Under the pieces are notes generated by a model. It did no database searches and was not told where the DNA came from. It was given only the letters and a program-made list of their open reading frames with translations. From NCBI GenBank assembly GCA_025060455.1, contig JANXBY010000003.1, positions 34,719 to 98,718 on the forward strand: a DNA stretch of 64,000 nucleotides, written 5' to 3'. The DNA is from Armatimonadota bacterium. Its GTDB lineage: Bacteria; Sysuimicrobiota; Sysuimicrobiia; Sysuimicrobiales; Sysuimicrobiaceae. Below, one piece after another: positions 45,839 through 64,000 of this stretch (positions within the stretch are counted from its first letter, which is position 1; every line of letters begins with the position of its first letter). Made by a program: the position numbers and the translations under genes.

Positions 45839-45842
45839 GGTC

Positions 45843-46862
45843 GTGAGGCGGTGGTCAGTGCTGTTGGTGGGTATGGCGGTGCTCGTGGTGGGCTCGGTGC
45901 CGGTGGGTGCGCAGGCCCGCCGGATCGTGGTGTACTCTGCACTCCCCGACCTGGAGACGTCCCTGATCAACCGGGAGTTCACCCGCAGGACGGGGATCGC
46001 GGTGGAGGCCCTCAGCGTAGCCGCCGCGGGCACCTTGGCGGCCCGGATCCGGGCGGAGCGGGACCGTCCGCGGGCCGACGTGTTCGTGGGCGGGTCCGCG
46101 GACTTCCACGCACCCCTGGCCCGGGAAGGCCTCCTGGTTCCCTACCGGTCTCCCGTGGCACGGGAGGCACGGGTCAGCCCCGCCTTCTTGGACCGGGACG
46201 GGTACTGGCACGGGTGGTACCTCGGGATCCTGTCCATCATCGTGAACACCGAGCGGTGGGACCGGGAGATGGCTCCGCGGCGGGTTCCCAAGCCCGCCAC
46301 CTGGGACGACCTCCTGCGGCCGGAGTTCCGGGGACACTTCATCATGCCCAGCCCGGTGACCACCGGGGCCGGCTACATCTTCGTGGCCGGGCAGATCTTC
46401 CGCCTGGGGGAAGACCGGGCGTGGGCGTACCTGCGCGAGCTGAACCGCAACGCAGCCCAGTACACGCCCACCGCACCGGGCACCATCACCCTGCTGGAAC
46501 GGGGGGAGGCCGTCGTGGCCATGATGTGGGCGCACGAGGGGATCGGGGCGAGGCGGGTGCGCTTCCAGCCACTGGAGGTGATCGTGCCGCCCGACACCGC
46601 CTTTGAGATCGGCGCGGTCTCCATCCTGCGGGGCGGGCCCAACCCGGAGGGCGCCCGCGCGTACGTGGACTTTCTCATGACCCGCACGCCGCAGGACATC
46701 AACGCCCGCTACGGGTTCCGGTACCCGGTGCGGACGGACGTGGAGCCTCCCGCAGGCGCGCCGCCCTTCGAGTCGGTGAAGTTCGTCCGGTACGACCGGG
46801 AGTGGGCGATCACCAACGCGGAGCGGGTGCGGGAGCGGTGGACCCGGGAGATCGGCCGGTAG
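45843..46862 (+). CDS. ABC transporter substrate-binding protein (iron(III)/FbpA-type family 1 SBP)
   Basis: Signal peptide and SBP fold. GTG 45843 follows GGGAGGTGAGG, overlapping the HAD stop. Confidence 0.7.
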   Translation: MRRWSVLLVGMAVLVVGSVPVGAQARRIVVYSALPDLETSLINREFTRRTGIAVEALSVAAAGTLAARIRAERDRPRADVFVGGSADFHAPLAREGLLVPYRSPVAREARVSPAFLDRDGYWHGWYLGILSIIVNTERWDREMAPRRVPKPATWDDLLRPEFRGHFIMPSPVTTGAGYIFVAGQIFRLGEDRAWAYLRELNRNAAQYTPTAPGTITLLERGEAVVAMMWAHEGIGARRVRFQPLEVIVPPDTAFEIGAVSILRGGPNPEGARAYVDFLMTRTPQDINARYGFRYPVRTDVEPPAGAPPFESVKFVRYDREWAITNAERVRERWTREIGR

Positions 46863-46876
46863 TCGAATCCGGGCGG

Positions 46877-48529
46877 ATGCTGGCTGGCCGCGTGGGCGCC
46901 TTGGTTCCGGGGGTCGAGGCCCGGAGGCAGCTGGCCGACCCAGGCCTCGCCCTCGCGTTCCTCGCGGGAGCCTTCGCCCTGGCGGTGTTCGTGCTGTACC
47001 CCACGGTGCGCGTGCTGGCTTACCCGAGCCTGCAGGACTACCTGAGCATCCCGCACAGCGTCCGGTGGGTGCAGGCAGCCCGCAACAGCCTCCTGAGCGC
47101 CGTGCTGTCCACCACCACGGCGGTGGCGGTCGGCCTGGCCTTCGCCTTTGCCACCACCCGCCCGGACGTGCCCGGGAGCCGGTTCTTCCGTGCCGTGGCT
47201 CTGCTGCCGCTGTTCGCGCCGCCGTTCATGGTGGCGTTCTCGTACATCCTGCTGTTCGGCCGGCAGGGCCTGGTAACCCGCCACCTGCTGGGCCTGGACG
47301 TGAACATCTTCGGCCCCCACGGGCTGTGGCTGGTGCAGACGGTGGCCTTCTTCCCCCTGGCCATGCTGGTGATCGTAGGCGTGCTGGAGAGCATCAGTCC
47401 CAGCCTGGAGCAGGCGGCGCGGAACCTGGGCGCGGACGACTGGCAGGTGACCCGCACCGTGACCCTGGCCCTGGCGCGGCCGGGGATCGCGGGAGCGGCC
47501 CTGGTCGTGGCCATCTCGGTTCTGGCGGACTTCGGCAACGCCGTCGTGATCGCAGGCGGCTGGCCCCTGCTGGCCACGGAGGCGTGGTTCCGAATGGAGG
47601 GCATGGCGGACCTGCGAGGCGCCTCCCTCGTGGTCGCCATGCTGGTGGTCCCCACCACGGCCCTGTTCCTGCTGGAACGGTACTGGGTCGGCCGGAAGCG
47701 GTACACCACCGTGACCGGACGCGGGGGACGGCTGGAGCGCCCGCCCACGTACCCGCCCCTCAAGTGGGCGAGTTTCGCCGTATGCGGGGTGACCAGCATC
47801 CTGGTGTTGCTGGTGTACCTGGGCGTGGTGGCGGGGGCCTTCACCGCGGTGTGGGGACGGGACTGGTCGTTCACCCTGGACCACTGGCGCCTGGCTGCAG
47901 ACCGGACTCCGTCCCTGTGGGCGAGCCTCCGGGTGGCCGCCGGCGCGGGCGCGGTCACCGCGGTGGCGGGCATCCTCCTGGCGTTCCTCGCGGGCCGTCC
48001 GCTGCCCCTGCGAAGGGCCCTGGACTTCCTGGCGGTGTTGCCAGGCGCGCTGCCGGGGGTGTTCGTGGGCGTGGGCTTCGTGTTGGCCTTCAACCGGCCT
48101 CCCCTGGAGCTGGTGGGAACACCGTGGATCCTCATCCTGGCCCTGGCCTTCTGGCACCTGCCCCTGGGGTACCAGGCGGCGGCGGCCCAGCTGCAACAGA
48201 TCGACCGGTCCATCGAGGAGGCGGCCAGCAACCTGGGCGCCCGGGGCCTGCACCTCCTGCGGGATGTCTACCTGCCCCTTTTGAGCCGCGCGTTCGTGGA
48301 GGGGTTCACGGTCTCTTTCGTGCGTGCGGTGACCAACGTGAGCATCGCGGTGTTCCTCGTCTCCCCGGGCAACGTGGTGGCCACCTTCGCCATCCTCAAC
48401 ATGATCGGAAACGGGATCTGGGGCGGGGCTGCCGCCCTCACCACCATGCTCCTGCTGGTGACCTTCGCGGTCCTGGCCGGCGCCCGACTGGTAGTGGGGC
48501 GGGCCCTCCGCCCGGCGGGGGTGGGGTAG
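46877..48529 (+). CDS. ABC transporter permease, two-domain iron(III)-type (FbpB-like)
   Basis: About 550 aa with two MetI-like domains. Confidence 0.8.
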   Translation: MLAGRVGALVPGVEARRQLADPGLALAFLAGAFALAVFVLYPTVRVLAYPSLQDYLSIPHSVRWVQAARNSLLSAVLSTTTAVAVGLAFAFATTRPDVPGSRFFRAVALLPLFAPPFMVAFSYILLFGRQGLVTRHLLGLDVNIFGPHGLWLVQTVAFFPLAMLVIVGVLESISPSLEQAARNLGADDWQVTRTVTLALARPGIAGAALVVAISVLADFGNAVVIAGGWPLLATEAWFRMEGMADLRGASLVVAMLVVPTTALFLLERYWVGRKRYTTVTGRGGRLERPPTYPPLKWASFAVCGVTSILVLLVYLGVVAGAFTAVWGRDWSFTLDHWRLAADRTPSLWASLRVAAGAGAVTAVAGILLAFLAGRPLPLRRALDFLAVLPGALPGVFVGVGFVLAFNRPPLELVGTPWILILALAFWHLPLGYQAAAAQLQQIDRSIEEAASNLGARGLHLLRDVYLPLLSRAFVEGFTVSFVRAVTNVSIAVFLVSPGNVVATFAILNMIGNGIWGGAAALTTMLLLVTFAVLAGARLVVGRALRPAGVG

Positions 48530-48532
48530 GCG

Positions 48533-49582
48533 ATGGCGGTGCACCTCCGATTGGTGGACGTGGTCAAGCGGTTCGGCGCCACCACCGCGGTGGACGGCGT
48601 TTCCCTGGATGTCGAGGAAGGCTGCTTTTTCACCCTCCTGGGTCCTTCCGGCTGCGGGAAGACAACCCTGCTGCGCGTGGTGGCGGGATTCCACCTGCCC
48701 GACCGGGGAGAGGTGTTCTTACGGGACCGGCGGATCACCCACCTGCCCCCGCAAGCCCGGGGGACCGCGATGGTGTTCCAGGAGTACGCCCTGTTCCCCC
48801 ACATGACGGTGGAGGAAAACGTGGGCTACGGCCTGCGCATGCGGCGGGTCCCCGCAGGCCAGGCGCGGGAGCGTGTGCGGCGGGTGTTGGAGTTGGTCGG
48901 GCTGGTGGGTCAGGAGCACAAGTACCCGCACCAGCTCAGCGGCGGCCAGCAGCAGCGGGTGGCCCTGGCCCGGGCGCTGGTGGTGGAGCCGGAGGTGTTG
49001 CTCCTGGACGAGCCCCTCAGCAACCTGGACGCAAAGCTGCGGCTGCGGGTCCGCGAGGAGCTGCGGGAGCTCCAGAGGCGTCTCGGGCAGACCACCCTGT
49101 ACGTGACCCACGACCAGGAGGAGGCCCTGGCCCTTTCGGACCGCGTGGCGGTGATGAACGCAGGCCGGGTGCTCCAGGTGGGAACCCCAGAGGAAGTCTA
49201 CCTGCGCCCGCGGAACCGCTTCGTGGCGGAGTTCGTGGGCATGGCCAACTTCGTGCGGGCCCGGTGGGTGGGTCCCGGGCGGGTGCAGGCCGGCGGCATA
49301 GTGCTCCGGGTGGGCGAGGGGAGGACCTCCGGAGGCGACGTGCTGTTGGCGATCCGGCCGGAGGAAGTCCGGGTGCGGACGGAGCCCGGGGACGGTGGCC
49401 CTAACCTCCTCCAGGGCCGTGTGCAGTCGGTCACCTTCCTCGGGCCGGTCCGGCGGTGTACCGTGGAAACAGACGGGCTGCGGTGGGTGGTGGACGTGCA
49501 GCCCGACGTCCGGGTGGAGGCGGCTCAGGAGGTTTACCTGGAGGTGCCGCCCGAGCGGCTGCGCGTGGTGGAAGAAGCATAG
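48533..49582 (+). CDS. ABC transporter ATP-binding protein (FbpC/PotA-like)
   Basis: Walker A GPSGCGKTT, signature LSGGQQQRVALARAL, Walker B LLLDEPLSNLD, and a C-terminal TOBE-like domain. Confidence 0.85.
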   Translation: MAVHLRLVDVVKRFGATTAVDGVSLDVEEGCFFTLLGPSGCGKTTLLRVVAGFHLPDRGEVFLRDRRITHLPPQARGTAMVFQEYALFPHMTVEENVGYGLRMRRVPAGQARERVRRVLELVGLVGQEHKYPHQLSGGQQQRVALARALVVEPEVLLLDEPLSNLDAKLRLRVREELRELQRRLGQTTLYVTHDQEEALALSDRVAVMNAGRVLQVGTPEEVYLRPRNRFVAEFVGMANFVRARWVGPGRVQAGGIVLRVGEGRTSGGDVLLAIRPEEVRVRTEPGDGGPNLLQGRVQSVTFLGPVRRCTVETDGLRWVVDVQPDVRVEAAQEVYLEVPPERLRVVEEA

Positions 49583-49615
49583 GCCGGTCAGTCACATCGG
49601 GAGGGGGGATTCACA

Positions 49616-50635
49616 GTGCGCAGAGCGTGGCTGCTGATTCTCGGTCTGTTGTTGGTGGTGCCCGCGGGATCCGGGGCAGGCCCCGCGCAGCGAGTGGTGG
49701 TGCTGTGTAGCCCGAACCCCGCGTGGTGTGACGCCGTCAAGGAGGAGTTCCCCAAGGCGACGGGAATCGCCCTGGACTACGTGCGGCTGAGCTCCGGTGA
49801 AGGGCTGGCCCGCCTTCGGGCGGAGCGGCGCAACCCCAGCTTCGACGTGTGGTTTGGCGGGACCGGTGACCCGCACATGGTGGCCTTCGAGGAGGGGCTT
49901 ACGGAGGCGTACCGGCCGCGGAGCTGGAACGACCTGCGGCCGGAACTGCGGGAGGCCGTGGGCGGGAAGTACATCCCCCTGTACGCGGGGATCCTGGGCT
50001 GGGCCCTGAACGAGCGGGTGTTGCGAGAGCGGAACGCCCCGGTCCCGAGGACGTGGAAGGACCTGGCGGACCCGCGCTACCGGGGCCTGGTGGCCTACCC
50101 GAACCCGAACACCTCCGGGACGGGCTACACCATGCTGGCCACCCTGGTCCAGCTGTACGGGGAGCAGCAGGCGTTTGAGCTGCTGAAGCAGATCCACCGG
50201 AACGTGGCGGAGTACACCCGCAGCGGTGCCGCGCCGGGCCAGCTCACCGGGCGCGGGGAGGTGGCGGTGGGCATCACGTTCATCCACGACGCCGTGGACC
50301 AGGTGCTGAAGGGGTTCCCCATCAGCTACGGGGCGCCCCGGGACGGCACGGGCTACGAGATCGGGGGCCTGAGTTTGGTGAAGGGAGCTCCGAACCGCAC
50401 CGCCGCGGTGACCTTCATCGAGTGGGCCCTCACTCCCGAGGCGCAGCGCCTTGGGCCGGAGCGGGGCCAGTCCTACCAGATCCCGTCCAACAGCAAGACC
50501 CCCATCCCGCCCGTGGCGCCGCGGTTTGAGGCTTTCCGGGTGATCAAGTACGACTTCCTGAAGTACGGCAGTGCCGCGGTCCGCGACCGGCTCGTGAAGC
50601 GTTGGACGGACGAGGTGTTCCCGCTGCCGAAGTAG
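49616..50635 (+). CDS. ABC transporter substrate-binding protein (second family 1 SBP)
   Basis: Signal peptide MRRAWLLILGLLLVVPAGSGAG and SBP fold. Paralogous to the SBP at 45843. Confidence 0.7.
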   Translation: MRRAWLLILGLLLVVPAGSGAGPAQRVVVLCSPNPAWCDAVKEEFPKATGIALDYVRLSSGEGLARLRAERRNPSFDVWFGGTGDPHMVAFEEGLTEAYRPRSWNDLRPELREAVGGKYIPLYAGILGWALNERVLRERNAPVPRTWKDLADPRYRGLVAYPNPNTSGTGYTMLATLVQLYGEQQAFELLKQIHRNVAEYTRSGAAPGQLTGRGEVAVGITFIHDAVDQVLKGFPISYGAPRDGTGYEIGGLSLVKGAPNRTAAVTFIEWALTPEAQRLGPERGQSYQIPSNSKTPIPPVAPRFEAFRVIKYDFLKYGSAAVRDRLVKRWTDEVFPLPK

Positions 50636-50640
50636 CGGAC

Positions 50641-52860
50641 GTGGCCCGGGCCGTCGCGCTCCCTCAGACCCGGTGGGCGGCCCAGCCGGCGGTGGCCGCG
50701 TGGGCCGCCGCGACCGTGCTCGCCGCCGCGGCACTGCCGTGGGGCCGCGCGGGCCGCGACCTGGGATCCTGGCTGTGGGACTCCACAGGCGTTGTGCTAG
50801 CGTCGGGTTCCCTCCTGGCGGCAGGCGTTCTGCTGGCCTCCTTCGCCGTTCTCCTGGCAGGGCTGTGGCCCGCGCCGGAGCGCACCCGCGGGGTGGCGCT
50901 AGCGGCCTTCGGAGCGTGCGGGATGGCGCTGTCCGGCCTGCTCCTCGGGGTGCGGGGCACGCCCACAGGGCCGGCCGGCGTCCTGGCACCCCTGGGGTTC
51001 TTGACCCTCACGGGCTTCGGGCTTTCGTCCTCCGGTCGATGGTTTGTAGACCCGTTCCTGTCCGCCGCGGTGCTCTGGGCCGCGGCCTTCGTGGCGTTGT
51101 TCATCCTGCTCCCCCTGGCCTCGGTGGTGGTGGCCAGCGTGTGGGTGGACGGCCGCTTCACCCTAGAGGTGGTGCACCGGACCCTGACCTCGCCTGCCTT
51201 CCTCGCCCTCGACCACCCCGGGACGCCGCACAACGAGCTCGCGGTGGCGGCCGCGGTGGGCTTGGCGGTGGCGGTGGGGACCTTGGTCCTCGGATGGTAC
51301 CTCAGGTGGAGCCGCCGGAGCCTTCCCGCGGGCGGGGCGGCCGGCCTCGCCGCAGCCGCACTGGCGAGCCTGTACCTGGGGTTTGGGGCCTTCCGCAACA
51401 GCCTCCTGCTCGCGGTGGTGGTGGGCGCGGTGTCTACGGCCCTGGGGTTCGCGTTTGCGCTCCTTTCGGAACGGTCGCAGCTGCCCACGCGCCGCCTGTT
51501 GGGGACGCTGTCGGCCCTCCCCATCATCACGCCGCCCTTCGTGTTGGGGATCGCCATGCTGTACCTGTTCGGCCGGCGTGGGTTCGTGACGTACCGCCTC
51601 CTGGGAGTTTCCACGGACGTGTTCTTCGGACCGTTGGGGGTAGCGGTGGCCCAGGTGCTGGCGTACACGCCCATCGCGTACCTGGTCCTGGTGGGCGTGG
51701 TCCGAGCGCTGGACGCGAGCCTGGAGGAGGCGGCGCAGACCCTGGGCGCCTCGCCCTGGCACCTGGTGCGCACGGTTATCTGGCCCCTCGCGCGCCCCGG
51801 CCTCGCGAACGCGTTCCTCCTGGTGGCCATCGAGAGTCTGGCGGACTTCGCCAACCCCATCGTGGTGGGCGGCGGAAAGCCGTTTTTGGCCACCGAGGTG
51901 TTCTTCGCCATCGTGGGCCGGTATAACCCGCACGAGGCGGCCACCTACGGGGCGGTGCTGCTGGCCCTCACCCTGACCGTGTTCGTGTTTCAGCAGCGGT
52001 GGTTGGGTGGGGCGTTCTACGTCACCGTCACGGGCCGTCCCACGGGTGCTCGGCCGCAGCCCCTGCCGCTGTGGCTGGACTGGGCCCTGTCCGCGGTGTT
52101 CGTGGTGTGGATGGTAGTGGTGGTCCTGCTGTACGGGTCGGTGTTCGTGGGGGCGGTGACGCGCCTGTGGGGATTCGACTACACCTTCACCCTGCGTCAC
52201 CTGCAGGACCTCCACCCGCAGGGCTGGCAGGTCCTGCGGACCACGGTGCAGCTGTCTGCGTACGCCGCGGTGCCCTCCGTGGTGGTGGGGTTTCTGATCG
52301 GCTACCTGGTGAACCGGGTGGACTTTCCCGGCCGGCGGGCGCTGGAGTTCAGCTCCATGCTGTCGTTCGCCACGCCGGGGACCGTCATGGGGATCGGGTA
52401 CGTGCTGGCCTTCAACCAGGGGCCGTTGCTGCTCACGGGCACGGAGCTGGTGATCGTGCTGGCCTTCGTGTTCCGCAACATGCCAGTGGCCATCCGGGCC
52501 GCGGTGGCCGCCTTGGAGCAGATCGACCGCTCTTTGGAGGAGGCCAGCACGATGCTCCGGGCGGGTGCGAGTACCACGTTGCGGCGGGTGGTGGCACCCC
52601 TCGCCCGGTCTGCCCTCCTGTCCGGGCTGGTGTTCGCGTTCGTGCGGGCCATGACGGCGGTCAGCCAGGTGATCTTCCTCATCACGCCGCAGCACAACCT
52701 GGCCACCACCCAGATCCTGTCGTACCTGGAGTACGGCAGTCAGGGTCGGGGGGCCGCCCTGGCATCCGTCCTGACGCTGCTCCTGGTGACCGTGGTGGCG
52801 TCCCTCCAGGCATTGAGCCGGCGCCTGGATCCCAGGACGGCCCAGCTGGGGGCGGGGTGA
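50641..52860 (+). CDS. ABC transporter permease, two-domain iron(III)-type with extra N-terminal TM region
   Basis: About 739 aa with two MetI-like domains (PLARPGLANAFLLVAIESLADF and a second copy). GTG start at 50641. Confidence 0.75.
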   Translation: MARAVALPQTRWAAQPAVAAWAAATVLAAAALPWGRAGRDLGSWLWDSTGVVLASGSLLAAGVLLASFAVLLAGLWPAPERTRGVALAAFGACGMALSGLLLGVRGTPTGPAGVLAPLGFLTLTGFGLSSSGRWFVDPFLSAAVLWAAAFVALFILLPLASVVVASVWVDGRFTLEVVHRTLTSPAFLALDHPGTPHNELAVAAAVGLAVAVGTLVLGWYLRWSRRSLPAGGAAGLAAAALASLYLGFGAFRNSLLLAVVVGAVSTALGFAFALLSERSQLPTRRLLGTLSALPIITPPFVLGIAMLYLFGRRGFVTYRLLGVSTDVFFGPLGVAVAQVLAYTPIAYLVLVGVVRALDASLEEAAQTLGASPWHLVRTVIWPLARPGLANAFLLVAIESLADFANPIVVGGGKPFLATEVFFAIVGRYNPHEAATYGAVLLALTLTVFVFQQRWLGGAFYVTVTGRPTGARPQPLPLWLDWALSAVFVVWMVVVVLLYGSVFVGAVTRLWGFDYTFTLRHLQDLHPQGWQVLRTTVQLSAYAAVPSVVVGFLIGYLVNRVDFPGRRALEFSSMLSFATPGTVMGIGYVLAFNQGPLLLTGTELVIVLAFVFRNMPVAIRAAVAALEQIDRSLEEASTMLRAGASTTLRRVVAPLARSALLSGLVFAFVRAMTAVSQVIFLITPQHNLATTQILSYLEYGSQGRGAALASVLTLLLVTVVASLQALSRRLDPRTAQLGAG

Positions 52861-53921
52861 ATGCCGTGGCGGAGGGCGTGCCCGTCCGTCTCGAGGGCGT
52901 CACCAAGCGCTTCGGCGCGGTGTTGGCGGTCGACTCCGTGGACCTGCACGTCCCGCCGGGTAAGCTGGTGACGCTGTTGGGGCCGTCGGGGTGCGGCAAG
53001 ACCACTACCCTGCGCCTCGTGGCGGGCTTGGAGCGCCCCACCGCGGGCCGCGTGTGGATCGCAGACGAGGACGTGACGGACCTGCCCGCGGCACGGCGCG
53101 GGGTGACCATGGTGTTCCAGTCCTACGCCCTGTTCCCCCACCTCACGGTGTTTGAGAACGTGGCGTACGGGCTGCGGGTGCAGCGGCTCCCGGCAGCAGA
53201 AGTCCGGCGCCGGGTGATGGAGGCGCTGGAGCTGGTGGGGCTTCCGGAGACCGCGGAGCGCTACCCGGCGCAGCTCAGCGGCGGGCAGCAGCAGCGGGTG
53301 GCGCTGGCGCGGGCGCTGGTGATGCAACCCCGCGTCCTCCTGTTCGACGAACCCCTCAGCAACCTGGACGCGAAGCTGCGGCGGAGGGTGCGGGCGGAGA
53401 TCCGGATGCTGCAGCAGCGGCTCGGGATCACGAGCCTGTACGTCACCCACGACCAGGCGGAGGCGCTGGCCCTGTCCGACGTGGTGGTGGTGATGAACCA
53501 GGGGCGCGTGGAGCAGGTGGGGATCCCGGAGGAGGTGTACCGTCGGCCGAGGACGCGGTTTGTGGCCGACTTCATCGGGGAGGCCAACCTCTTGCCGGCC
53601 ACCTTCTGGGAGGGTGCGGTGGAGGTGGCCAGCTACCGCTTCCCCGTGGAGCAGGAGGAGGTGCGGGACGGGCCGGTGACCGTGATGGTGCGGCCGGAGG
53701 CGGTGGTGGTGTCGCAAGACGCCTCCGGCCTGCCCGGAGTGGTCCGGACCGTGTTCTTCATGGGCATGACCACGGAGCTGCTGGTAGACACGCCGGCGGG
53801 GGAGGTGCTGGCCACCCAACCGTACCGGGCAGACCGGAGGATCGTGCCGGGAGAGCAGGTGCGCCTGCGCTTCGAACCGGCCGGTGTGTACCTGCTGCCC
53901 GCCGAAGACGGGAGGGGCTAG
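52857..53921 (+). CDS. ABC transporter ATP-binding protein (second FbpC/PotA-like)
   Basis: GPSGCGKTT, LSGGQQQRVALARAL, LLFDEPLSNLD. GTGA overlap with the permease stop. Confidence 0.85.
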   Translation: MNAVAEGVPVRLEGVTKRFGAVLAVDSVDLHVPPGKLVTLLGPSGCGKTTTLRLVAGLERPTAGRVWIADEDVTDLPAARRGVTMVFQSYALFPHLTVFENVAYGLRVQRLPAAEVRRRVMEALELVGLPETAERYPAQLSGGQQQRVALARALVMQPRVLLFDEPLSNLDAKLRRRVRAEIRMLQQRLGITSLYVTHDQAEALALSDVVVVMNQGRVEQVGIPEEVYRRPRTRFVADFIGEANLLPATFWEGAVEVASYRFPVEQEEVRDGPVTVMVRPEAVVVSQDASGLPGVVRTVFFMGMTTELLVDTPAGEVLATQPYRADRRIVPGEQVRLRFEPAGVYLLPAEDGRG

Positions 53922-55091
53922 GTGCACGCAGACGTGGTGGTGGTGGGCGGGGGTTGCGTCGGGGCCAGTGCCGCCTTCTACCTGGGCCGGGCGCGTGTGG
54001 GGCGCGTGGTGTTGGTGGAACGCGACCGCGTGGGCAGCGGCCCCACGGCCCGGACCGTGGGGATCGTGCGACTGCACTACTCCCACGAACCGCTGGTGGA
54101 ACTGGCCCGCCGAAGCCTGGAGCGGTTCGTGCACTTCGAGGAGCTCACGGGCAGGACCGCGGACTTCACCCGGACGGGGTTCCTCCTCCTGGCACCGGCT
54201 CCGGAGCTGGAAGGGCTGGCGGCCAACGTCGCCCTGCAGCGGCGGTTGGGCGTGCAGGCGGAGGTTCTGACGCCCGAGGAGGTGGCCCGGCTGGACTCGC
54301 GGCTGGACCTGGAGGGCGTGGCGGGGGCCGCGTACGAGCCGGACGCAGGCTACGCGGACGGGTACGCCACTGCCACGGGCTTCGGGGCCGCAGCACGGCA
54401 GCTAGGGGTGGAGGTGTGGGAGGGTACCTCTGCGCAACGGCTGCAGGTCACCTCCGGCCGCGTGGTGGGTGTGCAAACCTCCAGGGGCGTCGTGTCGTGT
54501 TCTCGCGTGCTCGTGGCCGCAGGGGTGTGGACCGCGGGGCTGCTGAGGACCGTGGGGGTGGACTTCCCGGTGGTGGCGTCCCGGGAGCAGGTGGTGCAGC
54601 TGGCTCCGCCGCGATCCTTCGGCCGCCTCGAGCTGGTGGTGGAGGACCTGGTCTTGGGATTCTACGCGCGCCCGGAGACCGGCGGCACCGTGCTGGCCGG
54701 CGTCCTGGAGGAGGAACCGGAACAGATCGTGCCCGACCCGGATCACTTCCACACAGGAGTGGATTGGGAGTTCGTGGAGCGGGTCGGGACCCTCTGGTCC
54801 AGGCGGTACCCGTCCGGGGCGCAGGCGGAGTTCCGCGGGGGCTACGCCAGCCTGTACGACGTCACCCCGGACTGGCAGCCAGTGCTGGGACCGGTCGAAG
54901 GGGTTGACGGCCTGTTCGTGGCCGCGGGGTTCAGCGGCCACGGGTTCAAGCTGAGCCCGTCCCTGGGCGAGGAGCTGGCCCGGTGGGTGTGCGGCCAGCC
55001 GCCCACGGTGGACCTGCGGATGTTCTCCCTGCGCAGGTTCTCGGAGGGCACGCTGCTGCGCGGCCGTCACGCGAAGGGCCTGCTCGGATAG
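53922..55091 (+). CDS. FAD-dependent oxidoreductase (DAO family; glycine/sarcosine oxidase-like)
   Basis: N-terminal dinucleotide-binding VVVVGGGCVGASAAFYL and the DAO fold. Its start abuts the ATPase stop. Confidence 0.75.
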   Translation: MHADVVVVGGGCVGASAAFYLGRARVGRVVLVERDRVGSGPTARTVGIVRLHYSHEPLVELARRSLERFVHFEELTGRTADFTRTGFLLLAPAPELEGLAANVALQRRLGVQAEVLTPEEVARLDSRLDLEGVAGAAYEPDAGYADGYATATGFGAAARQLGVEVWEGTSAQRLQVTSGRVVGVQTSRGVVSCSRVLVAAGVWTAGLLRTVGVDFPVVASREQVVQLAPPRSFGRLELVVEDLVLGFYARPETGGTVLAGVLEEEPEQIVPDPDHFHTGVDWEFVERVGTLWSRRYPSGAQAEFRGGYASLYDVTPDWQPVLGPVEGVDGLFVAAGFSGHGFKLSPSLGEELARWVCGQPPTVDLRMFSLRRFSEGTLLRGRHAKGLLG

Positions 55092-55099
55092 GAGGACCT

Positions 55100-55193
55100 G
55101 GCGGAGGGGGTGGGATTCGAACCCACGGGCGGGGTTTTTGCCCCGCCACGGTTTAGCAAACCGCCGCCTTGGACCGCTCGGCCACCCCTCCGG
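55100..55193 (-). tRNA. tRNA-Ser (anticodon GCU), class II with long variable arm, CCA encoded
   Basis: Minus-strand sequence GGAGGGG-TG-GCCGAGCGGTCCAAGGC-G-GCGGT-TTGCTAA-ACCGT-[long variable arm]-GTGGG-TTCGAAT-CCCAC-CCCCTCC-G-CCA. A TTGACA -35 lies upstream. Confidence 0.85.
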
Positions 55194-55331: not shown

Positions 55332-56006
55332 TCAACGGGCCTTCCGGTACAGGGCGTGCAGGTTCCGCCAGAACCCACCCTCGTCCGTGGGGCGGGTGGT
55401 CACGCGGGTCGGGGCTTCGGGGACGAGCCCGTGCTGGCCCATCCAGGCGTCCAGGGTGGCCTCGTCCAGGAGCACGAACCGACGCCCCTCCCCAGAGGGT
55501 TCGGTGGCCTCGAACACGAACGGCCCCGCCGGGCGCATGGGTTGTGGCCACGGCTGGCTCCCCAAGGCGAAGTGTTGGACCAGCAGCAGGCCTCCGGGCC
55601 GCAGCACGCGGGCTGTCTCCGCCACCGCCCGGTGCCACTCCCCCACGTCCTGTGCCTGCTGGTAGATCCCCAAGGCCACCACCACGTCGAAGGACTCCGC
55701 CCCAAAGGCGGCGAGGTCGTCCATGGTGCACTGGAGCACCCTTCGCGCCGCCTCCTCCGGGCCGAGGTACGGCACCAGCCGCCGGCGGGTGTACGCCACC
55801 ATGGCCTCGGAAGCGTCGCAGGCGTACACGTCAAACCCCTCCCGGGCCAGCCACTCGGTGTTGCGGCCCGCCGCACAGCCCAGGTCCAGGACCCGGGTGC
55901 TCCGAGGCGCCCTCGAGAGGAGCTCCACCATGCGGTCGTCCGGCGGCCGCGTGGCGAACCGCTCCACCACCTCGGGCCGCTCCCAGAAGGGGTCTCGAGC
56001 CCTCAC
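55332..56006 (-). CDS. Class I SAM-dependent methyltransferase
   Basis: Motif I VLDLGCAAGRNTEWLA and post-I DVYACDAS. The GTG start overlaps the upstream stop (GTGA). Confidence 0.7.
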   Translation of the reverse strand: MRARDPFWERPEVVERFATRPPDDRMVELLSRAPRSTRVLDLGCAAGRNTEWLAREGFDVYACDASEAMVAYTRRRLVPYLGPEEAARRVLQCTMDDLAAFGAESFDVVVALGIYQQAQDVGEWHRAVAETARVLRPGGLLLVQHFALGSQPWPQPMRPAGPFVFEATEPSGEGRRFVLLDEATLDAWMGQHGLVPEAPTRVTTRPTDEGGFWRNLHALYRKAR

Positions 56007-56842
56007 GGCGCCTCCGGCGTACCCGGCAAGTGGCGGCACAGCCAGTCCACCACCACGGTACACAGACGGTCTTCCGCACCCACGTAGAAGTGGTCACAGT
56101 CCTCCAATACGGCCACCTGCGCGGGTCCCGCACAGCGCTGGACGAACGCGGAAGCGGGGTAGACGTCCTCGGGCTCTCGATCCCCTCGGACGAACAGCAC
56201 GGGGCAGCGGATCCGCGGGGTCTGCTCCAGGAGGTCTGGACAGTGGCGGGAGTAGTCCAGGAACGTCCGGGCGCTGGTCACGTACCACCACCCGGGCAGC
56301 AGGAGCAGCTCGCGCTCGCGACCCTCTGCGACGAGCTCCTCCGCCCTGCGGGTGATCTCTTCCAGCCGGTCGGCAGCCCACAGCCCGCGGGCGGAAAGCC
56401 GCTCGGCGAACCGGGGACCTCCCGCGTGGGCGGACAGGAGGACCAGGGCGGAGACCTCCGGGTGGGCGGCGGCGTAGCACGCGCCCAACAGGCCGCCGTT
56501 GCTGTGCCCCACCACCGCCGGCGCGGGAAACCCCATTTCAGCGAAAAAACGCCCCGCCAGCTCGTTGTCCTCGAGGCCCTCCGCCACCGTCTGGAGAGCC
56601 CCGCCCACCGGCTCTCGGCTGTCGGCGGTGGTGAGGGTGTCGTGGCCGCGGCGGTTGAACGCCAGCACCGCGAACCCGGCGCGCTGGAGCGCGGCGGGCA
56701 AGAACCAAGCCGGGCCCGAGTAGAAGTTCATCTGGTTCCCGTGGAAGTACAGCACGCCGCCCCTCGGGGCACCGTCGGGCCAGTACAGGAGGCCCTCCAG
56801 GGGGCGGGTGGGCGTGGGGATGCGGACGAGCTCCAGGCGCAT
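56003..56842 (-). CDS. Alpha/beta hydrolase
   Basis: Nucleophile elbow GHSNGG and alpha/beta fold. ATG lies 1 nt after the M20 stop. Confidence 0.75.
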   Translation of the reverse strand: MRLELVRIPTPTRPLEGLLYWPDGAPRGGVLYFHGNQMNFYSGPAWFLPAALQRAGFAVLAFNRRGHDTLTTADSREPVGGALQTVAEGLEDNELAGRFFAEMGFPAPAVVGHSNGGLLGACYAAAHPEVSALVLLSAHAGGPRFAERLSARGLWAADRLEEITRRAEELVAEGRERELLLLPGWWYVTSARTFLDYSRHCPDLLEQTPRIRCPVLFVRGDREPEDVYPASAFVQRCAGPAQVAVLEDCDHFYVGAEDRLCTVVVDWLCRHLPGTPEAP

Positions 56843-56843
56843 C

Positions 56844-58211
56844 CTACCCGCCTGCCTCGCTACTGCCGAAGCGTTCCAGGATCAACGCCACGTGTTTGAT
56901 CCCCTCCACGTAGTCCCGCAGGCGGATGTTCTCGTTCGGCGCGTGCACGTTGGTGCCGGGATAGCCCACGCCCGTGCCCACCGCGGGCGTTCCGAAGCGG
57001 GCGCACACCACGTCCATGGGGCCGGTGGCCGCCATCATGGGGTAGATGACAGGGTCCTTGCCGTACACCTCCCGCGCCGCGGCGGCCACCACCCGCACGA
57101 TCTCGGAGTCCGGCGGTGTGCGGGCGGGATCCTCGAGGCCCATGGGGACCACCTCCAGGTCTGCGAACCCAAAGCGTGCCAGGTGCGCCCGGAGCTTCTC
57201 CAGGACGTCCTCCGCCCGCTGCCGCGGCACCAGGCGGAAGTCGATCTTCGCCCGGGCCACCTTCGGGAGCACCGTCTTGGAGCCCTCGCCCGTGTAGCCC
57301 GCCACGAGTCCGCAGACGGTGCACGTGGGCTGGTACAGGTGGCGCTTGAGCAGTTCCACCCCCGACAGGCCCAGGAGGAACCGGTCCAGCCCCAGGTCGC
57401 GCAGGAGGGCTGCGTCGTCGCGGCTCGCGGCGATCCGCCGGAGCCACTCCACCTCCTGCGGCCCCGGTTCCTCCACGTCGTCGTAGAACCCCTCGATGAG
57501 CACGTTCTCCTGCTCGTCCTTCAGGGTGCGCAGGGCCCACACCAGACGCCACGCGGGGTTGGGCACGATGGTGGCCATGGAGGAGTGCAGGTCACGGTTG
57601 GCACCGCGGGCCACCAGCTCCACGTAGCAGATCCCCTTGACGCCCAGGTACAGGTTGGGCACGTCCTGGTGGTCCTTGCCGCCCGACTCCCACAGGCATC
57701 CGTCTGCCCGGAACAGCTCGGGGTGGGCGTCCGCGTACCTGCGCAGGTTGGGGCTGCCGACTTCCTCCTCGCCCTCCACCAGGAACTTGACGGTGACGGG
57801 CAGCTGCCCCCGGACCTGCCGGAGGGCCCGGATGGCGGACAGACGCGCCACCAGGTTGCCCTTGGTGTCCGCCACCCCACGCCCGTAGATGCGGCCTTCC
57901 CGGACCTCGGGCTCGAAGGGGTCGGACTCCCACTCTTCCAAGGGCTCTACAGGCTGCACGTCGTAGTGCTCGTACACCAGCAGGGTCTTCGGGGAGCGGC
58001 CGGGGAACTCCCCGTAGACCAGCGGTGCCGCACCCGGCAGGCGGTAGACGCGCACCTTTGCCCCCGCCTCCCGCAGCAGGTCCGCCACGAGACGGGCGCA
58101 CTCCTCCAGCCCGACGCCCTGTGCCGCGATACTGGGCTGGCGGACCAGGCGGGCGAGCTGCTCCACGTACTCCTGCACGTGGCGGTCGATGTGGTCGAAC
58201 ACGTCCCGCAT
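56844..58211 (-). CDS. M20 family metallopeptidase / dipeptidase (ArgE/DapE/CPG2 family)
   Basis: M20 metal-binding motifs (HYDVQP, GRGVADTKG, EGEEEVGS) and a dimerisation domain. Confidence 0.8.
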   Translation of the reverse strand: MRDVFDHIDRHVQEYVEQLARLVRQPSIAAQGVGLEECARLVADLLREAGAKVRVYRLPGAAPLVYGEFPGRSPKTLLVYEHYDVQPVEPLEEWESDPFEPEVREGRIYGRGVADTKGNLVARLSAIRALRQVRGQLPVTVKFLVEGEEEVGSPNLRRYADAHPELFRADGCLWESGGKDHQDVPNLYLGVKGICYVELVARGANRDLHSSMATIVPNPAWRLVWALRTLKDEQENVLIEGFYDDVEEPGPQEVEWLRRIAASRDDAALLRDLGLDRFLLGLSGVELLKRHLYQPTCTVCGLVAGYTGEGSKTVLPKVARAKIDFRLVPRQRAEDVLEKLRAHLARFGFADLEVVPMGLEDPARTPPDSEIVRVVAAAAREVYGKDPVIYPMMAATGPMDVVCARFGTPAVGTGVGYPGTNVHAPNENIRLRDYVEGIKHVALILERFGSSEAGG

Positions 58212-58229
58212 GGGGCTACCGCCTACCTC

Positions 58230-58856
58230 CTACACCGCCCCGGGAAGCTTCCGCGCCGAGACGAGTACAGGATACGGACCCGGTGTGCCCTGGGCATAGC
58301 GCTCCTCCCACGGCGTCAGCTGCTCGAGCAGCAGGTCTACGTCCAAACCGAGGTGGCTGGGCCGGTAGGTCACGAGCCGCTCCTTGGCTCGGTCCAACAG
58401 CACTCGAGCGCCGGGGCGGTTGCCTTTCTCGTGATGGTAGAAGGCCGCGGCCAGCTGGACCAGGCCCTGGTAGAAACCGCGGTCCTCCGCGGCCGCGGTG
58501 CGCCACAGCCCCTCAAAGTGCTCGTGGCAGGCGAAGAACAGGCCGAAGTCGAACAGGACCAAGCCCAGGTAGGTGGACCTCTCGGGTTCCGGCGCGGGAG
58601 GCGGATCCAGGAGGAACACCGCGGCCCGGTGGAGCCGGTCCGCCTGCACCTGAAAATACCGGCTGTACGGGCGGTACGCACGGGGTAGGGCCAGGCGGCC
58701 GCGCCCCTGCCAGAGGACCCGGGCCTGGACGGCCACGGCGAGCTCCGAGCGGGACCCGGTCCACGCGACAGGCCGCGCCAACCGTGTTGCGTGCTCCTGC
58801 ACCCACTCCACCGGCAGCGGCCCGCCATCGGGCGCAAGCTGCGCGTACGCGGCCAT
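58230..58856 (-). CDS. DUF309 domain-containing protein
   Basis: DUF309 core LVLFDFGLFFACHEHFEGLW. The start is uncertain. ATG 58856 is chosen because it avoids overlap with the upstream gene. The longest ORF runs to 59048. Confidence 0.5.
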   Translation of the reverse strand: MAAYAQLAPDGGPLPVEWVQEHATRLARPVAWTGSRSELAVAVQARVLWQGRGRLALPRAYRPYSRYFQVQADRLHRAAVFLLDPPPAPEPERSTYLGLVLFDFGLFFACHEHFEGLWRTAAAEDRGFYQGLVQLAAAFYHHEKGNRPGARVLLDRAKERLVTYRPSHLGLDVDLLLEQLTPWEERYAQGTPGPYPVLVSARKLPGAV

Positions 58857-58966
58857 CCACGCCACAAACCCTGCCTGGCGGGGCTGAGCGGCCGCGCGCA
58901 GGGTGAGCTCGCTTAAGGAGTGCTTCAGCCGGACGTACAGGGTCCGCTCCCGTTCCCTTCGAAGGG

Positions 58967-61033
58967 TCAGCGGGCCGGGCTTGCCTCCAGCGTCCTGCGG
59001 AGGGCCTCCGGGTCCGCAACCGGCGGGGCGCAGGAGTTGCCAACGCACACGAAGGCCGTGCTCCCGCCCGCAGCCGCCTCGGCGGCGGAGCGCGCCGGCT
59101 CAGGCAGCTCCTGGCCGGGCTCTGCCCAAGAAACGACCCGGTCCGGGTGGGCGGCGGACCACGCGGCGCGGTGCAGGGCCCGGGCCGCGGGGTCGTGGCG
59201 CCCGCCGGCCACCACTACGTGCACGGGAGGCTGCAGGGATCGGCTGGCGGCCAGGGAGTAGGTGGCCGCAAAGTAGCCGTGGGCCCGGGCCACCCCTGCA
59301 AAGGTTCGCACCACCTCCTCCGCGCGTTCTGCCCACCGGACCTCTCCGCTCAGCGCGGACAGGTCCTGCAAGAACAGCGCCGCCACGCCGTTGCCGGACG
59401 GCGTCGGTGCGTCCTGGATCGGCTTGTAGGGTAGCTCCAGGGCGGGGCCCCGCGCCTGAGACCTGGGCACGTCAAAGAAGCCGCCCTCCGCCGGGTCGTG
59501 GTACTCTCGATCTAGCAGCGCGGCGACCTCCCGCGCCGCGTCCAGATGTCTCCGCTCTCCCGTCAGGCTGTAGGCCAGCAGCAGGGCGTATCCCATGTGC
59601 ACCTGGTCGTCCAGGGTCCGGGGGCCCTGCGGCTCGTGCAGGGCGTGCGAAAAGCCCCGTGCTGGGTCAAACCCCTCCCGCAGGAAACGGTCCACGGTGC
59701 GCAGGGCGGCCTGGGCGTACCGTTCCACCGCCGTGGCCTGGTGGGCCACCAACAGGGCGGTGGCCGCCATCCCGTTCCAGGCCGCGTACAGGGTGCGGTC
59801 CACCGCAGGAGCGCTTCGCGCGCTGCGCCCGTGGCGCAGCTTGCGGACCGCGGATTGCAGCAGCTTCTGGACGCGCGGCACGTCCCAGCCCAGCTGTGCT
59901 GCCACCTCTTCCACGGAGGCCGCCACCCACAGGACGTTCCGCCGCGGGTCGTGGTGCATCTCCCCTTGCTCGTGCAGGTCAAACCGTCGCCGCACCACCT
60001 CCAGCTCGTCCGGCTCCAGGAGGGCGGCGGCTTCGTCCACCGTCCACGTGAAGTAGTCGCCGTCGTCCCCCGGGCCGGTGTCGGCGTCCTGGCTTGCGCC
60101 GAACCCGCCTGCGGGGTCAGCCAGCACGTCCAGGAGGAAGCCCGCGGTACCCTCCACCACCTCCGCGTACAGGGGGTCGCGCCACAGCAGGTAGGCGCGG
60201 CTGTAGGTGGCCAGCAGCGCTGCGTTGTCGTACAGCATCTTCTCGAAGTGTGGGACGCACCACCGGGCGTCGGTGCTGTACCGGTGGAAGCCACCCCCCA
60301 GCTGGTCGTAGATGCCGCCGTGGGCCATGGCCCGCAGGGTGTGCCGGGCTACCACCTCCATCCACTCCTCCCGCCGGTAGCCGAAGTGGTACAGCACCAA
60401 ATCCAGGGCGGACGCGTGGGGAAACTTCGGGGCGGTCCCGAACCCCCCGTAGCGGGCGTCGAAGGCCCGCGCGATCCCGTCCAGCACGTCCTCCACCATC
60501 TGCAAACTCACGGGGCCCGGGTCGGTGGCGGTCTGCGCCCGACGGAGCTCCTGCGCCAGCTGGGCTGCCACCTCCCGCGTGCGATCCCGCTGCCGGCGGT
60601 AGGCTTCCGCTACACCCTGGAGGACCCGGAGGAAACCGGGCCGGCCGTAGCGGTCCTCCTTGGGAAAGTACGTCCCGCCGTAGAAGGCATACCCGTCCGG
60701 CGTAAGGAAGACGGTGAGGGGCCATCCGCCCTGCCCACTCAGGGCCGCCACCGCGTTCTGGTAGCGGACGTCCACGTCCGGCCGCTCGTCGCGGTCCACC
60801 TTCACCGGGACGAAGTGCTCGTTGATGAAGGCCGCGATCTGCGGGTCGTCGTAGGACTCGTGGTCCATCACGTGGCACCAGTGGCACCAGGCTGCCCCAA
60901 TGTCCAGGAGTACCGGTTTGTCCTCCCGGCGGGCGCGCTCAAAGGCCTCCTCGCACCACGGGAACCAGTCCACCGGTTGGCGCGCCGCGGCGCGCAGGTA
61001 CGGGCTTGCGGCACCTCGGAGGCGGTTGGTCAT
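58967..61033 (-). CDS. Thioredoxin domain-containing protein YyaL family (DUF255 + six-hairpin glycosidase-like domain)
   Basis: N-terminus [31 protein letters not shown]...AWCHWCHVM matches the YyaL/DUF255 family. The track ORF carries about 95 aa of spurious upstream extension. Confidence 0.8.
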
Positions 61034-61073
61034 CTCCTCCCTATGGTAGATCACCGACGAGGCAGCCGGGCGG

Positions 61074-61889
61074 TCAGAGGGGAGACCTACGGGTGAAACG
61101 GGGTTCCCGCTTTTCGCGGAAGCTGGCCACCCCCTCCCGGGCGTCCGCGCCGAGGAAGGCCAGGAACTCCAGCGCCGTGGAGGTGTCGAACACCGGGCCC
61201 GCCATGCGCAGCCAGTTGTTGAGGGCGTACTTGGTCCACCGGATGGCCTGAGGGCTGCCGGCGGCCAGGCGGCGGGCCACGGCCAGGGCGGTGGGGTAGA
61301 CTTGGTCGTCCGGCACACACAGAGAGACCAAGCCCAGGCGCTCCGCCTCCTCCCCCGACAACGGCTCGTTCAGGAGCAGGTGGTACTTGGCCTTGGCTAG
61401 CCCCACCAGGAGCGGCCACAGGAGCACCGCGTGGTCGCCTGCCGGAACCCCCAGGCGCACGTGCCCGTCCAGTAACCGGGCGGTGCGGCCCACCACGGAC
61501 ACGTCCGCCAGCAGGGCCACCGCCAGCCCCGCGCCCACCGCCACCCCCTCCACGCACGACACCACGGGCTTGCCGCAGTCCAGCAGGTTGTACACGAGAT
61601 CCCTGGCTTCCTTCCACACCCGGAGTCGGACCGTCTCGTCCCGGATGATGTCCTCGATGAGCTGCAGGTCGCCTCCGGAGGAGAAGGTGCCGCCGGCGCC
61701 CCGCACCAGGACCGCGCGCACGTCCTCGTCTGTGTCCAGGTCCCGCCAGATGCGGGCCAGCTCCGCGTGGGCCTCCGCGGTCACGGAGTTCAAGGTGGGA
61801 GGGTTGTGGAGGATCACCTCCACGATGCCGTCCTCCACCGGGCACACCTGCAGGGCGCGGTAGCCGGACCGCCACGTTCCCCCTCTCAT
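61074..61889 (-). CDS. Enoyl-CoA hydratase/isomerase family protein (crotonase fold)
   Basis: Crotonase motifs ([36 protein letters not shown]). ATG 61889 lies 7 nt after GAGGGGG. Confidence 0.8.
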
Positions 61890-61972
61890 CCGGGAACCCC
61901 CTCGGGTGGGTTTTTGGCTGGACGCCCTCCCCATGGTACGGGATCGCAGCCGGCCAGGGGAGGGGTCGCCGG

Positions 61973-62257
61973 TCAGGACTGGCGGCGGCTGGCTTCCAGG
62001 TAGTTCAGACGCACGTCCGCCACGTGCATCAGCAGCTCGGTCAGCCGATCCCCCTGAAGGTGGTTCTGCAGCAGGTCTGTAAGGGCACCTGCAGCGTCGA
62101 TGGCCAGCCGGGCCTGTTGCAGATCCACCTGAGTCTTGCCCGGAATCAGGCCCAGGTACACGCGGGCCTGGTGCAGCATCAACATGACGCACCAGCTCAG
62201 CACGTCCGCTGCCGAGGCGGACTCTAGGGACGCTACGGGGTTGAACTCCTCTGCCAC
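61973..62257 (-). CDS. DUF1844-like small protein
   Basis: Conserved pattern [12 protein letters not shown]...[15 protein letters not shown]...[11 protein letters not shown] lies 5 nt after GGGGAGGT. Confidence 0.5.
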
Positions 62258-62307: not shown

Positions 62308-64000
62308 TCAGGGTTCCCGTGCGGTGGAGGGCTGCGCCCGCGTAAACCACTGTAGCAGCACCACCACCACCACCGCACCCGCGGCCACCAGGTCCAGGGC
62401 CACGGACGGGTAGATGAGCAACAACCCGGCTCCCACCAGGATCCCCCGCTCGACCCAGGTGGCCTCCCGGATGAGCCACCCGTTGATGCCCGCGGCAAGG
62501 CTGGTGAGGCCCAGCGCCGCGGTCAGGGTGGTCCGGACGACCAAGTCTACGGGCGCGTAGAACAGCAACGCCATCCCGTCGGGGTGCACGGTGAACATGA
62601 AGGGCACCACGAAAGCAGGCAACGTGTACTTCCACGCCATCATCATCGTCCGGAAGGCGTTGCCCCCGGTCAGCGCGGAAGCCGCGAGCGGGCTCAGCCC
62701 CACAGGCGGGGAGACCTCGGAGAGGATGGCGTAGTAGAAGATGAACATGTGCGCAGCCAGCTCGTGCACTCCCAGCTGGATGAGGGCGGGAGCGATGATC
62801 GCCGCGGCGATGATGTAGGTGGCGGTAATGGGCAGTGCGAGGCCCAGGATCCACAGGGCTACGCCCGAGTACACCAGGGTAAGCAGCAGGTTACGGCCAG
62901 CCATGTCCACGATGATACCTGACAGCTTCAGGCCCAGGCCGGTGAGCGTGATGACCCCGACCACGATGCCCGCCACCGCGCAGGTGACGGCCACCGTGAG
63001 GACCTGCTTGGTGCCGTTGGCCAGGGCGGCCACCAGGGGGGTGATGCTGACCTCCCACGGTCCCATCCGGACGAAGCGGTGTTCCGTGGGGCGCAGGGCC
63101 TGTCCGGCGTACACTTCCTCCCAGGCCGGGCGGGCCCGGACGCCCAGGTAGGCGCCGAGGAGCAGGCACAGCGCCGCGGCGGCGGGGGTGGGCAGGCCGG
63201 CAAGGTCCCGTGCCGCGGGCACCAGGGGCGATGCCAGCAGCGCTCCCACGAGGGGAGCGACCAGGGAGCGCAGGGCGGGTGAGGAGCGCCGCACGTCCGT
63301 GGCCCGACGCACCGCGGCCAGGGACGTCTCCGGCCGCAGGAAACTCGTGAGGCAGGCGACCACGGTGGACCAGAACACAGCGGCGATGGCGGTGAACCCG
63401 CGGACCATGAACAGGGGGATCATCACGAGGGAGGCCAGCAGGTACCAGTACCGGCCCGCGAGCCGCCACGGGTTCCCCGCCTGGATCTCCACCTGCCGCA
63501 GGCGGAACCGCCGGGCGTCCAGCTCGATCATCAGGAAGATAGAGAGGTAGTAGAGGAGAGTGGGGATGGTGGCCAGGACCAGCACCTGCAGGTACGAGAT
63601 CTTGAGGATCTCAGCGATGATGAAGGCCGCGGCCCCGAGGATAGGCGGAGAGATCACGGCGCCGATGCCGCCCGCGGACAGCAGACCGCCCGCGGACTCC
63701 GGGTCGTAGCCGGAACGCCGCAACAGGGGGTAGGCGATGGCGCCCACCGTCACCGTGGTGGCCACCCCGCTTCCCGAGGGCCCACCCAGCAGGAACGAAG
63801 CCACGGTGACTGCCTGCCCCGCGCCCGTACGCCGACGGCCCACCAGGGCGAAGGCCAGGTCCACGAAGTACTTCCCCGCACCGGACTGTTCCAGGAACGA
63901 CCCGTAGATGGTGAACAGGATGATGAAGCTGGCCGACACGTCCAGGGGCACCCCGAAGATGCCTTCCAGCCCCACGTACAGGTGCCCGATGATCCGATCC
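62308..64000 (-). CDS. TRAP transporter fused permease subunit (DctQ/DctM-like, 4TM+12TM), C-terminal part; N-terminus beyond window edge
   Basis: TRAP fused-permease motifs ([29 protein letters not shown]). The reading frame stays open to position 64000. Confidence 0.75.

Follow-up and report, generated by a model that had tools for sequence, protein, structure and literature searches.

A TAXI-TRAP-led gene array with DUF1844, long-form DUF309 and YyaL companions as the probable setting of a seven-gene segment in Candidatus Sysuimicrobiota

The closest described systems to the locus considered here are the TAXI-TRAP operons, such as those of Thermus thermophilus (TT1099 / 1us4) and Vibrio cholerae (VC0430); TAXI-TRAP systems have been described as poorly understood (PMC11574862). 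The segment under study comprises the minus-strand genes at 55332-62257 of a 64,000-nt stretch of contig JANXBY010000003.1 (71% G+C), which is referred to below as the window. An initial annotation had read these seven genes, running from a small DUF1844 gene to a methyltransferase gene next to a tRNA-Ser, as a candidate modification or salvage module, possibly acquired as an island. Comparison with other genomes supported this interpretation in part: the gene order is conserved, the unit had been drawn wrongly, and the region is not an island. We consider, with moderate confidence, that the region forms the downstream two-thirds of a vertically inherited, chromosomal and co-directional array headed by a TAXI-type TRAP importer, in which a small core is stable and the passengers are exchangeable. 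The TRAP-led operon is the known kind of system here, and its uncharacterised companions are what is new.

Gene order in related lineages

Domains were called with Pfam and NCBIfam profiles on translated open reading frames (ORFs), and tRNAs with ARAGORN and Rfam. Three sets of loci were compared with the window: the contexts of long DUF309 homologues (37-70% identity), 34 loci from a metagenome scan anchored on DUF1844 (30-97% identity), and, as an out-group, 80 YyaL loci of other phyla among the matches listed (31-48% identity). The closest homologues are labelled at NCBI as "Armatimonadota bacterium" or "candidate division GAL15 bacterium", GAL15 being Candidatus Sysuimicrobiota (CSP1-3) in the NCBI taxonomy. 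This phylum was formerly included within Armatimonadota and inhabits hot springs and soils (PMC11604079). By the labels of its closest homologues, the window would belong to this group.

Gene order in the closest lineages starts with the TAXI binding protein (NMT1_3) and runs through DUF1850, the fused permease, DUF1844, crotonase, YyaL, DUF309, M20, the hydrolase in some cases, and the methyltransferase to tRNA-Ser; a convergent DAO oxidoreductase gene and ABC transporter genes come next, which is also the layout of the window. The full order was found in loci L082-L090 and L095-L105. Conservation of the gene neighbourhood had been proposed as a check in the initial annotation, and the order proved to be kept in many related metagenome-assembled genomes and contigs.

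The unit had been taken to start at DUF1844, which did not hold: the array continues upstream into a TAXI-TRAP permease gene only 50 nt away, which runs off the right edge of the window with no stop codon in its frame up to base 63999. The permease orthologues are 726-740 aa long and are preceded by TAXI binding-protein (NMT1_3) and DUF1850 genes; the TAXI gene lies directly upstream in L082, L085, L088, L095-L104, and L112-L119, at a position before which the window ends. Because the window edge cuts the permease, and the TAXI and DUF1850 genes lie just beyond it in the relatives, the head of the array could not be seen from the window itself.

Across the approximately 13 lineages compared, only permease-DUF1844 and the long DUF309 gene persist, with YyaL and M20 as frequent members. 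DUF1844 is always the next gene after the permease in the Sysuimicrobiota-related lineage, and the long DUF309 gene shares an array with both of them in 12 lineages. Two reduced forms were observed. The first, permease-DUF1844-YyaL-DUF309, is followed by an inverted tRNA-Ser (L093, L112, L115, L116, and L118), and its genes overlap by 4 nt at DUF1844/YyaL and by 1 nt at YyaL/DUF309. The second, permease-DUF1844-DUF309-M20, has overlaps of 1-4 nt and is without YyaL (P0024 contig and L132). L107 and L109 retain only the transporter and DUF1844, the rest of the array being gone.

The hydrolase was seen only in the window, in L001, and in the L088/L103 lineage (76% identity), and was absent from L082, L085, L096, and L098-L102, corresponding to 4 of 6 close lineages. 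The crotonase was confined to the closest group and lacking in L091, L108, L110, L093, L112-L126, L132, and the P0024 contig. The methyltransferase is 77-80% identical across the close lineages; no match to it was obtained by tblastn in L100/L101 or L110, nor in any distant lineage. Some lineages also lack YyaL, M20, or the methyltransferase, YyaL being kept in most. With a membership this variable, the seven genes are no fixed unit; the hydrolase is a dispensable member. When examined gene by gene, the identities drop in parallel across the lineages, as expected for vertical inheritance.

One group of relatives carries additional genes. In L091, L108, and L110, and also in L092, a reverse-strand gene of 140 aa takes the place of the crotonase between DUF1844 and YyaL, and a four-gene insert stands between YyaL and DUF309 (L091 6239-9768), encoding a UbiE-like methyltransferase, an FAD-binding monooxygenase, an SRPBCC/polyketide-cyclase-like protein, and a ketosynthase.

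From the gene content, order, conservation, and variability that were observed, we distinguish a transporter head and three tiers of companions. The TAXI binding protein, DUF1850, and the fused permease would together form a secondary importer, which may take up a carboxylate or amino-acid-type solute. The first tier, the persistent transporter companions, consists of the three-helix DUF1844 protein and the long-form DUF309 protein; the second, of the frequent members YyaL and an M20 carboxypeptidase/aminoacylase similar to Sso-CP2; and the third, of lineage-specific passengers, namely the EchA15-like crotonase, the alpha/beta hydrolase, and the S-adenosylmethionine (SAM)-dependent methyltransferase. 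In the cytoplasm, the M20 enzyme may free amino acids from short peptides or from N-acylated amino acids, and DUF1844, the long DUF309 protein (a possible metal-binding helical bundle), and YyaL (thioredoxin fold) would be putative accessory proteins biochemically linked to this process.

Layout of the segment and its tRNA-Ser neighbour

The seven co-directional minus-strand genes were confirmed, with their coordinates and domains, by the Pfam and NCBIfam profiles (Table 1). Both coupled junctions reported at first were read in the sequence: a gap of 1 nt from M20 to the hydrolase, and a GTGA overlap in which the GTG start of the methyltransferase meets the stop codon of the hydrolase. The range of 0-40 nt originally given for the gaps fails for DUF1844 and the crotonase, which are 83 nt apart when the start chosen by gene callers in relatives is used.

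Table 1 Features of the window from the tRNA-Ser gene to the right edge, listed in the direction of the array.
Feature	Coordinates	Strand	Evidence and remarks
TRAP permease, fused DctQ/DctM-type, TAXI class, 3' part	62308..64000	-	Pfam DctM 225 bits on 62308-63975
DUF1844 small protein, 94 aa	61973..62257	-	PF08899, 27.2 bits vs cut-off 27
EchA15-like crotonase / enoyl-CoA hydratase family protein, 271 aa	61074..61889	-	ECH_1 149 bits; PRK07327 416.7 bits vs 292
YyaL/DUF255 protein, 688 aa	58967..61033	-	Thioredox_DsbH (PF03190) 242 bits
Long-form DUF309 protein, 236 aa from CTG 58940	58230..58940 (open frame to GTG 59048)	-	PF03745, 70 bits
M20-family metallopeptidase, 455 aa	56844..58211	-	Peptidase_M20 and M20_dimer; PRK06446 433.5 bits vs 369
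Alpha/beta-fold hydrolase, 279 aa	56003..56842	-	Abhydrolase_6/1, Hydrolase_4; GHSNGG nucleophile elbow
Class I SAM-dependent methyltransferase, 224 aa	55332..56006	-	Methyltransf_11/25/23, E 7e-18 (Methyltransf_11/25)
tRNA-Ser(GCU)	55099..55191	-	ARAGORN and Rfam; 140 nt downstream of the seven-gene set

A Shine-Dalgarno-like motif precedes every gene start in the segment; for DUF1844, which starts with GTG, this is GGGGAGG, 7 nt upstream. The terminator scan gave no terminator-like site on the coding strand in any intergenic gap of the array, and sites of this kind were as many in the region as expected by chance. The promoter scan of the region returned 0 promoters, and the Rfam scan returned the tRNA only. 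Judging from the sequence, the array is probably co-transcribed as one long operon or as two to three adjoining ones. The gap between DUF1844 and the crotonase contains a 10-bp G+C-rich stem-loop (61885-61910), which the scan rated terminator-like on the plus strand, a strand on which no gene ends here; read on the coding strand, it spans the Shine-Dalgarno-like motif and the start codon of the crotonase.

Tight co-directional packing is normal for the window; seven plus-strand genes at 45819-55091, for example, also have near-zero gaps. As such packing is common across the window, it is by itself not beyond chance and carries little weight; the significant signal is the gene order conserved in other genomes. 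These plus-strand ORFs (n=7) converge on the tRNA-Ser. The last of them, at 53922-55091, encodes a DAO-type FAD oxidoreductase (Pfam), and the others correspond to two ABC importers by synteny with L082 and L085. In L088, the DAO gene is replaced by GDPD and a further ABC system.

The tRNA-Ser lies beside the genes as first described, and the reported lack of an integrase was also correct, since no recombinase or integrase was found among the ORFs from the tRNA to the window edge, all of which are accounted for by eight genes. The suggestion that this tRNA marks a hotspot for an acquired island was, however, contradicted by its surroundings. The tRNA-Ser(GCU) has the same position in L082, L085, L088, L091, L096, L098-L100, L103, and L110; it stands inverted directly after DUF309 in L093, L115, L116, and L118; and it bounds the array in every lineage in which the end of the array is visible. 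The G+C content over the cluster (0.70-0.72) is the same as elsewhere in the window. The 22- and 28-nt 3' ends of the tRNA occur once in the window at ≤3 mismatches, the far border of an island falling beyond the window edge, and the gene cluster is situated on the 5' side of the tRNA. An acquired tRNA-linked island was rejected on the grounds of uniform G+C, no integrase, no repeated tRNA end in the window, a conserved tRNA neighbour, the occurrence of both array and tRNA throughout the related lineages, parallel identity decay, and the 5' position.

A different situation was seen in L093 (4080-13142), where DUF309 is followed by the inverted tRNA-Ser and two tRNA-Arg genes, and then by a phage-type integrase gene and large AAA_16/NACHT-like genes. 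Neither M20 nor the methyltransferase is present in L093, and the arrangement resembles a real tRNA-associated insertion beside the array.

Proteins of the array

The long DUF309 protein consists of an N-terminal helical domain of ~120 aa and a C-terminal DUF309 helical bundle. It belongs to the DUF309 family by its PF03745 match above the gathering score and by its helical-bundle fold. The bundle contains the invariant motifs HExxE and HxEKGN, and the invariant residues of the protein (H147, E148, E151, H177, E179, K180, and N182) suggest a putative metal or ligand site. In the predicted model, which has a predicted local distance difference test (pLDDT) score of 93, the N-terminal helical domain includes a beta-hairpin and the C-terminal bundle matches 2ijq and 2cwy. 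A profile search of 1.84 billion representatives yielded 6778 DUF309 proteins; about 60 of the best 150 of these 6778 matches, which are cluster representatives, align over the full length of the long form. A long-form DUF309 domain fused to a PCMT-like (protein isoaspartate) methyltransferase was also encountered (P0041, L131 398-2377) as a single 659-aa ORF on a 2.6-kb contig; the fusion may be genuine, or it may be an artefact of assembly or of a frameshift.

LYVRLKH, the conserved N-terminus of the long DUF309 protein, begins at an invariant CTG (58938-58940, minus strand; L082, L085, L088, L099, and L100), and more distant homologues have an ATG at this position (MYVRLKH). The DNA upstream of the CTG is not conserved, and a GGAG/AGGA motif stands 5-9 nt before it in each lineage. 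This arrangement suggests CUG initiation, and the three differing starts assigned by gene callers (139, 208, and 251 aa) are probably wrong.

The DUF1844 match of the window protein is marginal (Table 1), and its orthologues in L093, L132, and the P0024 contig carry PF08899. Its predicted model is a three-helix bundle, for which fold searches revealed no specific structural relative; neither for this model nor for that of the long DUF309 protein did fold searches provide a functional lead. A literature search found no functional study of DUF309, DUF1844, YyaL/DUF255, or 7TKV.

Distant DUF1844 genes were found in unrelated housekeeping contexts, namely FtsW-DUF1844-RarA/MgsA-MnmA (L127 631-4852), LigA-GNAT-DUF1844, and RtcA-DUF1844-asparaginase II. 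The layout of L128 (2637-7045) matches that of L127 by ORF sizes only, and further distant DUF1844 loci are L113 6969-10321 and L114 3169-6763. For the DUF1844 family, the FtsW-RarA setting may point to another, general role.

YyaL has a thioredoxin-like domain with a CHWC motif (WCHWCHVM in the sequence), and its large C-terminal part gave a faint GlcNAc_2-epim match (E 0.005), below the family cut-off. The DUF255 domain with CxxC together with the large C-terminal domain places it in the YyaL/DUF255 (Thioredox_DsbH) family, and its solved relatives are 7tkv, over the full length (E 7e-100), and 3ira.

The nearest solved relative of the M20 protein is Sso-CP2 of Sulfolobus solfataricus (4mmo, E 4e-95); 2pok was also retrieved, and CNDP2-type dipeptidases follow. 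Its catalytic and dimerisation domains are both present, the subfamily model PRK06446 scored above its cut-off, and the translation contains the motifs HYDVQP, GRGVADTKG, EGEEEVG, and NVHAPNE. In distant lineages, the M20 gene overlaps or abuts DUF309.

For the crotonase, the nearest solved chains are 3q1t, 7m3w, and 3qk8 (EchA15), with E values of ~1e-93, and 1wz8 was also retrieved. The methyltransferase had no solved relative at E<1e-8 and no NCBIfam model at cut-off, and the hydrolase had no solved relative at E<1e-6 and reached no curated family cut-off. A secondary-metabolite cluster, or one for a ribosomally synthesized and post-translationally modified peptide (RiPP), was considered and rejected, as it would need a core biosynthetic enzyme or a precursor gene and neither was found; the best matches of the methyltransferase, CpaM and the daptide methyltransferase, were far below their cut-offs.

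The transporter itself was approached through the TAXI binding protein of the orthologous locus L082. Its nearest solved structure is the T. thermophilus protein 1us4/1us5, deposited as a GluR0-like ligand-binding core, which we take to bind glutamate or glutamine. By analogy, this suggests an amino-acid-type ligand for the TAXI transporter of the array.

Alternative readings and relation to known systems

Several observations weigh against a functional array headed by the importer. The linkages are lineage-restricted, and all of them vanish outside: with tblastn and profile HMMs (hidden Markov models), DUF1844 or DUF309 was detected within 10 kb of 0 of the 80 out-group YyaL loci among the matches listed, and M20 in only three of the 80 (L038, L061, and L065); the distant DUF1844 genes lie in other settings; and the distant long DUF309 gene P0058, a single locus, has none of the array partners alongside. 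In the L091/L108/L110 lineage, the reverse-strand gene and the unrelated four-gene insert divide the array into several transcription units, at least there. The flanking DAO oxidoreductase and ABC transporter genes are also syntenic in the closest lineages, so part of the conservation is simple shared ancestry.

A serious rival, although we regard it as unlikely, is that unrelated housekeeping genes of a compact genome have been kept together by kinship, with no functional coupling beyond the transporter genes. The conserved flanks in the close lineages fit this explanation, as do the dense co-directional arrangement of the whole window and the fact that DUF1844, the long DUF309, and YyaL are each found in unrelated settings beyond the lineage; the methyltransferase also shows higher conservation than its neighbours, which would be expected of an independent housekeeping gene. 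What kinship does not readily explain is the core DctM-DUF1844-(YyaL)-DUF309-(M20), which survives completely changed flanks at ~50% YyaL identity (L093, L112-L118, L132, and the P0024 contig). In these distant cores, stop and start codons overlap, indicating translational coupling, and where YyaL or the crotonase has been lost, DUF309 has moved against DUF1844 and has not been dispersed.

The array headed by the TAXI-type importer is therefore preferred here as the description of the region. The further claim that DUF1844 and the long DUF309 protein, often together with YyaL and the M20 hydrolase, are dedicated cytoplasmic partners of the importer in Candidatus Sysuimicrobiota is put forward only tentatively and remains rather doubtful. 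If true, it would give a first functional context to two families without an assigned role, and would define a new kind of TRAP accessory module.

We consider it improbable that DUF1844, the long DUF309, and YyaL, with or without M20, constitute a new accessory module in the cytoplasm that belongs specifically with this TAXI-TRAP transporter and might carry out a metal- or redox-dependent step on the solute or sense it. The long DUF309 gene does share the array with DUF1844 and the permease in 12 lineages, start/stop overlaps join DUF1844-YyaL, YyaL-DUF309, DUF1844-DUF309, and DUF309-M20, and the invariant His/Glu motifs of the long DUF309 protein are accompanied by a confident two-domain model. 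On the other side, P0058 stands without the partners, L107 and L109 have TRAP-DUF1844 without the rest, distant DUF1844 genes are found beside FtsW/RarA, LigA, or RtcA, and the fold searches yielded no functional lead.

The weakest reading, and a highly improbable one, is that the seven genes form one dedicated, undescribed small-molecule or peptide modification or salvage pathway, acquired as an island beside the tRNA-Ser: the tight junctions (including the 1-nt gap and the GTGA overlap), the recurrence of the order in related genomes, and the fact that none of the genes has an assigned pathway speak for it, but such packing is normal in the window, YyaL occurs in 80 other genomes (among the matches listed) without these partners, the conserved tRNA-Ser neighbour, uniform G+C, lack of an att-like repeat in the window, and position 5' of the tRNA do not fit an island, and a membership so unstable that 4 of 6 close lineages lack the hydrolase, no lineage beyond the closest group has the crotonase, and the methyltransferase, M20, and YyaL are each lost somewhere makes a dedicated seven-enzyme pathway unlikely.

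If the linkage of the core is functional, the widespread DUF1844, DUF309, and YyaL/SPATA20-like families would gain an experimental handle through a defined transporter, a defined hydrolase, and a conserved operon, in a phylum that is globally abundant and uncultivated. Should synteny alone account for the linkage, the region would be an unremarkable part of a compact genome.

Compared with tRNA-linked genomic islands, the array shares the adjacency to a tRNA-Ser gene but differs in lacking an integrase, an att-like repeat in the window, and a compositional shift; its tRNA-Ser is a conserved neighbour in relatives, and the cluster lies 5' of the tRNA. With the TAXI-TRAP operons of T. thermophilus and V. 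cholerae, it shares the fused DctQ/DctM permease and the co-directional downstream cytoplasmic genes, and its orthologous loci have the upstream TAXI gene. It differs from them in the downstream DUF1844, long DUF309, YyaL, and M20 genes, and the papers located in the literature search describe no such TAXI partners. The long DUF309 protein has the bundle fold of the structural-genomics DUF309 proteins TTHA0068 (2cwy) and rrnAC1037 (2ijq), to which it adds a conserved N-terminal domain of ~120 residues. The window M20 protein resembles Sso-CP2 (4mmo) over its full length, belongs to the Sso-CP2-like subfamily PRK06446, and has the usual M20 metal and catalytic motifs, whereas its context, after DUF309 in a transporter-led array, is particular to the Sysuimicrobiota lineage.

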